Virus record (IMG/VR): IMGVR_UViG_3300031420_000495
Location: 160,001 to 224,000 of that record
Origin: a virus
Lineage: Duplodnaviria > Caudoviricetes
Direction: 5' to 3' (one strand)
Length of the DNA stretch: 64,000 nucleotides
Shown here: piece after piece, positions 59,357-59,611 of the stretch
Numbering within the stretch: position 1 is the stretch's first letter
Layout of the letters: each line of letters begins with the position of its first letter
The notes under the pieces: model-generated
Database searches by the model: none
Seen by the model: only the letters and a program-made list of their open reading frames with translations
Told to the model about the DNA's origin: nothing
Position numbers and translations under genes: made by a program

Positions 59357-59441
59357 TGGAGTTCCGCGGGGGAATCGAACCCCAGTCCTGAGGACGTCGC
59401 CTTGAAAGGGCGAGGACAGTTACCAGCCGTCATCGCGGAAC
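59357..59441 (-). tRNA. tRNA-Glu(UUC), 8/4 architecture
   Basis: GUUCCGCG/CGCGGAAC acceptor, 4-bp T-stem, variable stem. Confidence 0.75.
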
Positions 59442-59447
59442 AGTGTT

Positions 59448-59522
59448 TGGCGGAAATGACGGGATTCGAACCCGCGCAAGTCTGATCGACAATCAGGTGC
59501 TCTACCACTGAGCTACATCTCC
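59448..59522 (-). tRNA. tRNA-Asp(GUC)
   Basis: Canonical cloverleaf. Confidence 0.9.
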
Positions 59523-59528
59523 GTTGTT

Positions 59529-59611
59529 TGGTATTCCTAGGGAGAATCGAACTCCTTGCCTAAGCGTCCGGTTGAAAGCCGGATGACAGTCACCAACCGT
59601 CAACTAGGAAT
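59529..59611 (-). tRNA. tRNA-Glu(UUC), 8/4 architecture
   Basis: AUUCCUAG/CUAGGAAU acceptor, GGAG/CUCC T-stem. Confidence 0.75.

Follow-up and report, generated by a model that had tools for sequence, protein, structure and literature searches.

The text of PMC5389517 (Mukai 2017) describes as 8/4 and 9/3 transfer RNAs (tRNAs), named for the base pairs (bp) of the acceptor and T stems, the allo-tRNAs of Clostridia, Proteobacteria and Acidobacteria, the SelC* tRNA-Cys, minor tRNA-Sec, 8/4 tRNA-Ser and tRNA-His. According to the same text, 8/4 tRNA-Ser and tRNA-His also occur in phage tRNA clusters (alpha-proteobacterial phages are named for clusters in which the two co-occur), and tRNAs on 8/4 and 9/3 frames function in E. 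coli translation. The text of that article, its supplement apart, makes no mention of an 8/4 tRNA-Glu, and none was found in a review of non-canonical tRNAs or in full-text literature searches. Here we describe two tRNA-Glu(UUC) genes with the 8/4 split in a 64,000-nucleotide (nt) stretch of phage DNA (hereafter the window: bases 160001-224000 of the 257-kb IMG/VR phage record IMGVR_UViG_3300031420_000495): copy A (85 nt, 59357-59441, minus strand) and copy B (83 nt, 59529-59611, minus strand). Sequence comparisons indicate that both are genuine, selectively maintained 8/4 cloverleaf tRNAs, products neither of chance nor of decay. The original prediction, made from the letters of the window alone, had stated that 8/4 cloverleafs are reported for other tRNA types, which agrees with the text cited above (Ser, His, Sec, Cys and allo-tRNAs).

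Copies A and B share a common plan. From 5' to 3', the 8-bp acceptor stem is followed by a 2-nt linker, a 5-bp D stem (GACGG/CUGUC), a 7-nt D loop containing GG, a single nucleotide, a 5-bp anticodon stem with the loop CUUUCAA, the variable region, a 4-bp T stem with the loop UUCGAUU, the acceptor 3' strand, the discriminator base and CCA. In copy A (hand parse, minus strand) the acceptor is formed by 59441-59434 paired with 59368-59361, the D arm lies at 59431-59415, the anticodon at 59406-59404, the variable hairpin at 59396-59384, the T arm at 59383-59369, U73 at 59360 and CCA at 59359-59357; its linker is AU, its D loop CUGGUAA and its T stem GGGG/CCCC, and its 13-nt variable region carries a 4-bp hairpin (GUCC/GGAC). 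In copy B (anticodon at 59576-59574, minus strand) the linker is UU, the D loop UUGGUGA, the T stem GGAG/CUCC, the first acceptor pair A1-U72 and the discriminator A73, and the hairpin of its 11-nt variable region is marginal, because it has only 2 bp. The related long D arms noticed originally are present in both genes, as 5-bp stems with GG-containing loops; of the two variable hairpins proposed together with them, the 4-bp hairpin of copy A stands and the 2-bp hairpin of copy B does not stand at the same strength. U8 and A14 of canonical tRNA-Glu are absent from both copies. The canonical tRNA-Glu(UUC) gene said to lie beside them was located at 59699-59773 (75 nt, minus strand; Rfam tRNA 61.7 bits, ARAGORN, and a 7/5 minimum free energy (MFE) fold); it has the D stem GUCU/GGAC, a 4-nt variable region, A1-U72 and A73, and is the normal partner of both 8/4 copies.

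ARAGORN, one of the checks originally proposed, labelled both copies tRNA-Glu(ttc), on the minus strand and with lengths of 85 and 83 nt. A script then scored all 28 tRNAs of the surrounding array under the 7/5, 8/4, 8/5, 9/3 and 9/4 frames. All of the 26 other tRNAs (26/26) formed a perfect 5-bp T stem under 7/5, while copies A and B formed four of the five T pairs under 7/5 (the first T pair is lost, as U.C or A.C) and four of four T pairs plus eight acceptor pairs under 8/4, the eighth acceptor pair being gained in this frame; the two Glu genes were the only ones of the 28 on the 8/4 frame. The acceptor branch of both measures 12 bp (8-bp acceptor plus 4-bp T stem), as in the 8/4 tRNA architecture. 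ViennaRNA MFE and centroid structures were 8/4 cloverleafs in both copies (z -2.7 and -3.0) and 7/5 in the neighbouring canonical Glu gene; the MFE fold of copy B, the only copy able to extend its D stem, was 8/4 with an extended D stem. Neither copy reached the gathering score of the generic Rfam tRNA model (RF00005, 29 bits) in the window and whole-record searches. The best Rfam match of copy A was tRNA-Sec (RF01852), at 39.3 bits against a gathering score of 47, and copy B had no match to that model.

Homologues were retrieved by pattern scans (D arm plus anticodon loop) of IMG/VR and JGI metagenomes. After removal of duplicates and false hits, 30 distinct homologous sequences remained, 60-98% identical to the window copies and all located within dense phage-type tRNA arrays; five of them lie on huge phage genomes of 310-424 kb, four of which are estimated to be 100% complete and three of which have terminal repeats; several complete genomes measure 350-424 kb. 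Copy A is 98% identical to a member from another metagenome (L159), and copy B is a divergent member, with at most 73% identity to any other. The same pattern returned one true copy from 185,579 species-representative prokaryote genomes. A blastn search with two members detected none in 50,697 GenBank phage records (an ordinary 78-nt tRNA-Asp, from Streptomyces phage Enygma, gave the best hit), and none was seen in Ralstonia phage RsoM2USA, which gave a canonical-type Glu hit only (50.6 bits). The family is conserved and phage-restricted.

The sole copy from a prokaryote genome (L148) is on JAUMAI010000012.1, a 9958-bp contig of a 'Pirellula sp.' metagenome-assembled genome with approximately 1x coverage; the contig is an 18-tRNA array of the window type and most probably a phage fragment binned in error. 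The 8/4 Glu gene on it (5537-5620) carries three acceptor-stem mismatches and received no ARAGORN call. Damaged acceptor or T stems were also seen in L146/L154 (2013-2096) and L160 (696-779), the latter having lost one C and the CCA end. The yield of the other patterns varied: a first pattern, which drew on both window copies and kept the D arm and some of the anticodon stem constant, returned nothing in IMG/VR; a window-type pattern of the D arm only returned 20 loci, one of them a tRNA (L014) and the remainder coding sequence; and the major D-arm pattern without anticodon constraint returned mostly an unrelated hairpin of another phage group, together with one new member (L181). A loose pattern (anticodon loop, 16-24 nt, T loop) matched mostly unrelated DNA; among the matches listed were L065 and L070, as well as Glu-like tRNAs with long variable arms and different D arms (L036, L058, L095, L102, L114, L129). 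Of these six, L114, L058 and L129 matched the family model, at only 41-49 bits, L058 and L114 folded ambiguously, and the candidates were left out. All six genes (L058 at 5907-5991, L114 at 3030-3112, L095, L036, L102 and L129) combine the CUUUCAA loop with a long variable region and an acceptor that may have 8 bp, and further non-canonical Glu lineages may exist among them.

Covariation was analysed in the alignment of the 30 distinct sequences, in which 25 pairs were scored. Under the 8/4 structure, standard pairs occupied 97.7% of the cells, and changes on both sides (compensatory) were found in 18 of the 25 pairs (acceptor, seven of eight; anticodon stem, five of five; variable stem, all three scored; T stem, two of four). 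None of 500 shuffles reached any of the five measures used, and sliding the 3' partners by 1-3 columns brought pairing down to 36-49%. The four T-stem pairs were 99% paired, the eighth acceptor pair was G-C in 28/30 sequences, and the fifth T pair of a 7/5 fold was formed in a single sequence of the 30, one carrying a deletion. A sixth D-stem pair (columns 10 and 28) was rejected, being U-A in about 19/30 sequences and mismatched without compensation in the rest. RNAalifold, run unguided on the 25 intact members from outside the window, arrived at the same 8/4 cloverleaf.

An independent covariance model, made from 25 homologues of other samples and containing no window copies, gave 99.6 bits to copy A (E 8e-29) and 79.7 bits to copy B (E 1e-22), compared with 41.5 bits for the canonical tRNA-Glu and at most 35 bits for all other tRNAs of the window; the canonical gene at 59699-59773 was the next-best hit of both family models (42.0 and 41.5 bits). 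Throughout 1.35 Mb of fetched loci, family members scored 83-106 bits and the next-best hits 40-53 bits, with nothing between; the latter were mostly canonical 75-nt tRNA-Glu genes, and other tRNAs scored below 40 bits. Conserved features of the family include G18-G19 in the D loop, UUCGAUU as the T loop and a terminal CCA. The 8-bp acceptors and 4-bp T stems that the original prediction had read in both copies were recovered by the script, by ViennaRNA and by RNAalifold, pair 8 being the one acceptor pair without covariation, and its proposal of a conserved non-canonical family is upheld by the homologues, the compensatory pairs and the independent RNAalifold fold. The covariance-model check that it had suggested gave a divided answer: the Rfam tRNA and tRNA-Sec thresholds were not reached, and the family model recognised both copies.

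These genes are best described as coding for 8/4 tRNAs specific to one isoacceptor, of the Glu type but otherwise comparable to the phage Ser and His species. As far as the latter are described in the text of PMC5389517, the likeness comprises the 12-bp branch split 8/4, the anticodon for one amino acid, the location in phage tRNA clusters and the presumption that they are ordinary isoacceptors charged by the cognate synthetase; the differences are the amino acid (here Glu), the canonical copy with the same anticodon alongside, and carriers that include huge metagenomic phages. The 8/4 split is already published; the glutamate isotype, which we did not find described, appears to be new when set against the text of that article. 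Like the allo-tRNAs, the family has an 8/4 split, a lengthened D stem and an extra arm in the variable region, resembles tRNA-Sec weakly and is missed by standard models. However, its anticodon stem has 5 bp and is not longer (the flanking columns 28/46 are A or C opposite C and cannot pair); its D loop has 7 nt with GG on a 5-bp stem, whereas allo-tRNAs have a tRNA-Sec-like long stem and a tetraloop; its variable region has 10-16 nt and 2-4 bp with mostly A73 (U73 in copy A, A73 in copy B), whereas theirs is long and accompanied by G73 or U73; its anticodon is fixed, whereas theirs correspond to 35 codons; and it resides in phage arrays, not in bacterial loci near toxin-antitoxin or mobile elements. 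The suggested tie to allo-tRNAs therefore holds for the 8/4 split and the extra arm but not for the anticodon stem, the D tetraloop or the anticodon diversity, and the kinship is architectural only.

Bacterial tRNA-Sec (RF01852) resembles the family in its 8-bp acceptor, in a D stem whose extension costs the 8-14 contact and in an extra arm, but it has a 13-bp (8/5) branch instead of 12 bp (8/4) and UCA instead of UUC, and the matches to its model were below threshold or absent. Canonical tRNA-Glu(UUC) shares the CUUUCAA loop, U2-A71 (in both window copies), G10-C25, C12-G23, the 13-22 wobble, a G/C-rich T stem and, in the same arrays, the acceptor-end classes; it differs by the 7/5 frame, the missing extra D-stem pair, a variable region of 4 nt instead of 10-16 nt, and the presence of U8 and A14. 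The phage tRNAs that escape host defences (PMC10264068, PMC11555353, PMC12409363) are likewise phage duplicates of a host-type tRNA within an array, whose changed sequence may block recognition, but they change the anticodon stem-loop and keep the 7/5 frame, whereas the present genes retain the loop and have an entirely remodelled body.

We next consider which amino acid these tRNAs would carry. All members have the anticodon UUC, L014 and L181 from the D-arm-only scans among them, and the loop CUUUCAA is present in both window copies and in 30/30 aligned members (CUUUCAC in L181). The identity set of E. coli tRNA-Glu, as given in PMC9976931, comprises U34, U35, C36, A37, U13.G22, U11-A24 and the lack of a residue 47, with a weak contribution of G1-C72/U2-A71; U34, U35, C36 and A37 are all present in the family. 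No family-type body with another anticodon was found in the 1.35 Mb of loci which, together with the absence of intermediate scores, indicates that the 8/4 body is tied to the UUC anticodon. The first four D-stem pairs (G-C, A-U, C-G and a wobble) match the GACU/GGUC stem of the canonical tRNA-Glu genes of the same arrays and the D loops are similar, so that the 8/4 D arm looks like a canonical Glu D arm with one extra closing G-C pair. The fourth of these pairs (13-22) is a wobble in 29/30 sequences (U.G in 22, G.U in seven, G-C in the remaining one).

The acceptor end follows the same tendency. Copy A has G1-C72 and U2-A71, and copy B A1-U72 and U2-A71; among the family sequences, A-U occupies pair 1-72 in 17, G-C in eight and G.U in five, pair 2-71 is U-A in 16/30, and the discriminator (n=30) is A in 20, U in seven, G in two and C in one. 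First pair and discriminator are coupled (A1-U72 with A73 in 16, G1-C72 with U73 in seven, G.U with A73 in four). The same classes occur in the canonical tRNA-Glu genes of the same arrays, the window holds one 8/4 copy of each class, and the spread of pairs 1-72 and 2-71 equals that of canonical phage tRNA-Glu. When D- and T-arm similarity was compared with the anticodon masked, tRNA-Glu came first among the well-sampled isotype classes, by a small margin that lends weak support. The 8/4 gene often adjoins a canonical Glu gene, which fits a tandem duplication followed by remodelling; the two coexist in four complete huge-phage genomes, and in two genome fragments the 8/4 gene is the only Glu-like tRNA. 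No glutamyl-tRNA synthetase (GluRS) or glutaminyl-tRNA synthetase catalytic domain was found in this phage record or in five other carriers, so that any charging must be carried out by a host enzyme. Glutamate accounts for 5.8% of the phage codons, and GAA for 73% of the Glu codons. In the YeaG-like protein of the phage compared with two homologues, GAA was aligned with Glu at 59% and GAG at 61%, indicating that the main meaning of GAA is standard; low-level ambiguity is a thing that would escape this test.

From these comparisons, both copies are probably working Glu isoacceptors that arose from tRNA-Glu, are charged by the host GluRS and constitute a structurally distinct second supply. Their 12-bp acceptor/T stack is divided 8/4 where ordinary tRNAs have 7/5; an added G-C pair, standing where positions 14 and 21 would be, brings the D stem to 5 bp, and a short extra hairpin occupies the variable region. 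Both genes would be transcribed with the rest of the phage tRNA operon, their CCA being encoded; the host GluRS would charge them with glutamate, mainly via U34-U35-C36-A37 and the D stem of tRNA-Glu type; EF-Tu would accept them, because the 12-bp stack is kept; and they would read GAA and GAG, carried beside the normal tRNA-Glu as its structurally different reserve. As to the most likely benefit, we tentatively and speculatively propose that the 8/4 copies are spared by some factor that acts on ordinary tRNA-Glu by recognising its body, an idea that may well prove wrong. Candidate factors would be a body-recognising host defence tRNA nuclease (tRNase), a phage activity destroying host tRNA, or glutamyl-tRNA reductase. 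Rescue by phage tRNAs is known for phages facing tRNA-targeting defences (PMC10264068, PMC11555353, PMC12409363).

Several points weigh against the isoacceptor reading, or narrow the evidence for it. The anticodon loop of the 8/4 copies is the same as that of the canonical copy; consequently the published evasion through anticodon-loop changes (PMC10264068) does not apply, and if escape is the purpose, whatever factor tells the two apart has to do so by the tRNA body. This analysis identified no nuclease that acts on bacterial tRNA-Glu. Both window copies have the 13-22 wobble inverted (G.U and not U.G). The variable region of 10-16 nt breaks the 'no residue 47' rule of E. coli GluRS. Pair 11-24 is A-U in all members (the search pattern enforces it) versus U-A in E. 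coli, an objection weakened by the canonical tRNA-Glu genes of at least five of the same arrays, which also have A11-U24 (D stem GACU/GGUC), so that the local rule may differ from that of E. coli. As for the fold, the eighth acceptor pair never covaries; covariation therefore cannot prove it, and the fold may formally be 7/4 with two unpaired bases. The acceptor stems are damaged in four members (L146/L154, L148, L160), which suggests occasional gene decay. Finally, the pattern behind most of the homologues prescribed both D arm and anticodon loop, and two scans only were free of the anticodon constraint, so that the invariance of these two elements is partly by construction. We know of no cognate nuclease for the 8/4 tRNA-Glu family.

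The original prediction had offered nuclease-resistant tRNAs or decoys as alternatives, both conjectural. The main rival is a tRNA mimic outside translation, made and processed like a tRNA but delivering no glutamate. It would act as the decoy or sponge of some host factor that binds tRNA, such as a defence nuclease, toxin or modification enzyme, or else as the ligand of a phage RNA-binding protein. That both copies are missed by standard tRNA models is in its favour, as is the near-constant presence of a normal tRNA-Glu, since decoding does not strictly need the 8/4 copies where that gene is present; moreover, the irregular 8/4 tRNAs described in the text of PMC5389517 include species that are charged but unused, or uncharged. 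Against it, the family conserves all that translation requires (CCA, the fixed UUC in a 7-nt anticodon loop that has U33 and A37, the elbow nucleotides and the 12-bp stack), discriminator and first pair covary as in real tRNA-Glu, and the 8/4 gene is the sole Glu-type tRNA in two array fragments; we regard this role as unlikely, although worth keeping in mind. The covariation data have already contradicted the view that the copies are ordinary 7/5 tRNA-Glu, decaying duplicates or an over-read chance fold, a view that we find scarcely credible: the invariant eighth acceptor pair, which covariation cannot prove, and the broken acceptor stems of four relatives speak for it, but the fifth T pair forms in 1/30 sequences, compensatory change is abundant over sequences 60-98% identical, the copies score 80-100 bits with the independent model, and the family is found on complete phage genomes with terminal repeats.

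The original prediction had also raised the possibility that the charged amino acid is not Glu, and here the evidence leans the other way. The extra arm and the altered core could redirect the tRNAs to seryl-tRNA synthetase (SerRS), as in allo-tRNAs, or, for the copies with A73, to leucyl-tRNA synthetase, with partial misreading of GAA/GAG. Such a change of identity would be in line with the allo-tRNA plan of an 8/4 frame plus extra arm (allo-tRNAs are serylated or alanylated in E. coli, according to the text of PMC5389517), with tRNA-Sec as the best-matching Rfam model of copy A, and with the 'no residue 47' and U11-A24 rules of E. coli GluRS that the family breaks, deviations which keep mischarging alive at a low probability. 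But the variable hairpin has 2-4 bp only, in a region of 10-16 nt; G73, which is typical of tRNA-Ser, occurs in 2/30 sequences, the discriminator being mostly A or U, and G3.U70 is absent; the anticodon does not range over 35 codons as in allo-tRNAs but stays UUC; the D stem and the acceptor end copy those of the local canonical tRNA-Glu; and GAA aligns with Glu at the rate of GAG, low-level ambiguity apart. The SerRS route of allo-tRNAs is unlikely here, and a different identity as a whole seems quite improbable. Slightly more improbable is that the 8/4 frame and extra arm hand the tRNAs to a synthetase other than GluRS and that these phages would thereby deliberately place a second amino acid at GAA/GAG, giving ambiguous decoding during infection that would diversify phage proteins or poison those of the host.

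The three Glu genes belong to a phage tRNA array at 54416-60815 (minus strand) of 28 ARAGORN tRNAs, all of which (28/28) have an encoded CCA; around them, seven consecutive genes (59265-59850) are spaced by 5-8 nt. Also encoded in the window are tail sheath and tail fibre proteins, a helicase and a YeaG-like kinase. Four further genes of the array combine a 7/5 frame with long variable arms (84-92 nt in total; array script, minus strand): tRNA-Lys(UUU) at 58243-58329, Asp(GUC) at 59265-59348, Asn(GUU) at 60297-60388 and Ile(GAU) at 60397-60481, each adjoining a normal copy with the same anticodon. Other arrays carrying 8/4 Glu have recurrent long tRNAs for Asn (85-95 nt), Gln (86-89 nt), Ile (83-97 nt), Lys (87-88 nt) and Trp (85-89 nt). 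Beside the array there is an endonuclease V (EndoV) homologue (53745-54296, minus strand; PF04493, E 2.8e-12). EndoV enzymes cut next to inosine, the normal deamination product of A34 in tRNA-Arg(ACG); two tRNA-Arg(ACG) genes lie in the array and may be linked to the adjoining EndoV homologue. A papain-family cysteine protease is encoded within the array (56054-56935, minus strand; PF00112, E 1.6e-17), and outside the window the phage encodes an enzyme of the CCA-adding/poly(A) polymerase family (G000:C1:243534-243896; PF01743, 80 bits), despite the encoded CCA of the array tRNAs. The YeaG/PrkA-like kinase gene (24218-29280, minus strand), followed by two more large open reading frames, is 58% identical to YeaG of Enterobacter phage LAU1 and has homologues in 630-640 kb uncultured phages and in Ralstonia phage RsoM2USA. 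A search for an RtcB ligase found none, and the G+C profile of the record shows no host flank from which a host could be inferred.

Non-7/5 tRNAs are rare; they have been of use in working out how a tRNA is measured by synthetases, EF-Tu, RNase P and the ribosome, and also as orthogonal chassis for genetic-code engineering. To these the genes described here add an 8/4 lineage specific to glutamate, maintained by selection in many large phages and always located next to ordinary tRNAs, and they provide a natural matched pair, with one anticodon loop on two frames. Since standard tRNA models miss the 8/4 genes, the tRNA counts of huge phages are underestimates. Should the frame protect the tRNA from a host defence or from a phage tRNase, this would be a new form of counter-defence, one that remodels the body and not the anticodon loop. 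Should it change the amino acid, nature would have supplied an example of a sense codon that is decoded ambiguously.
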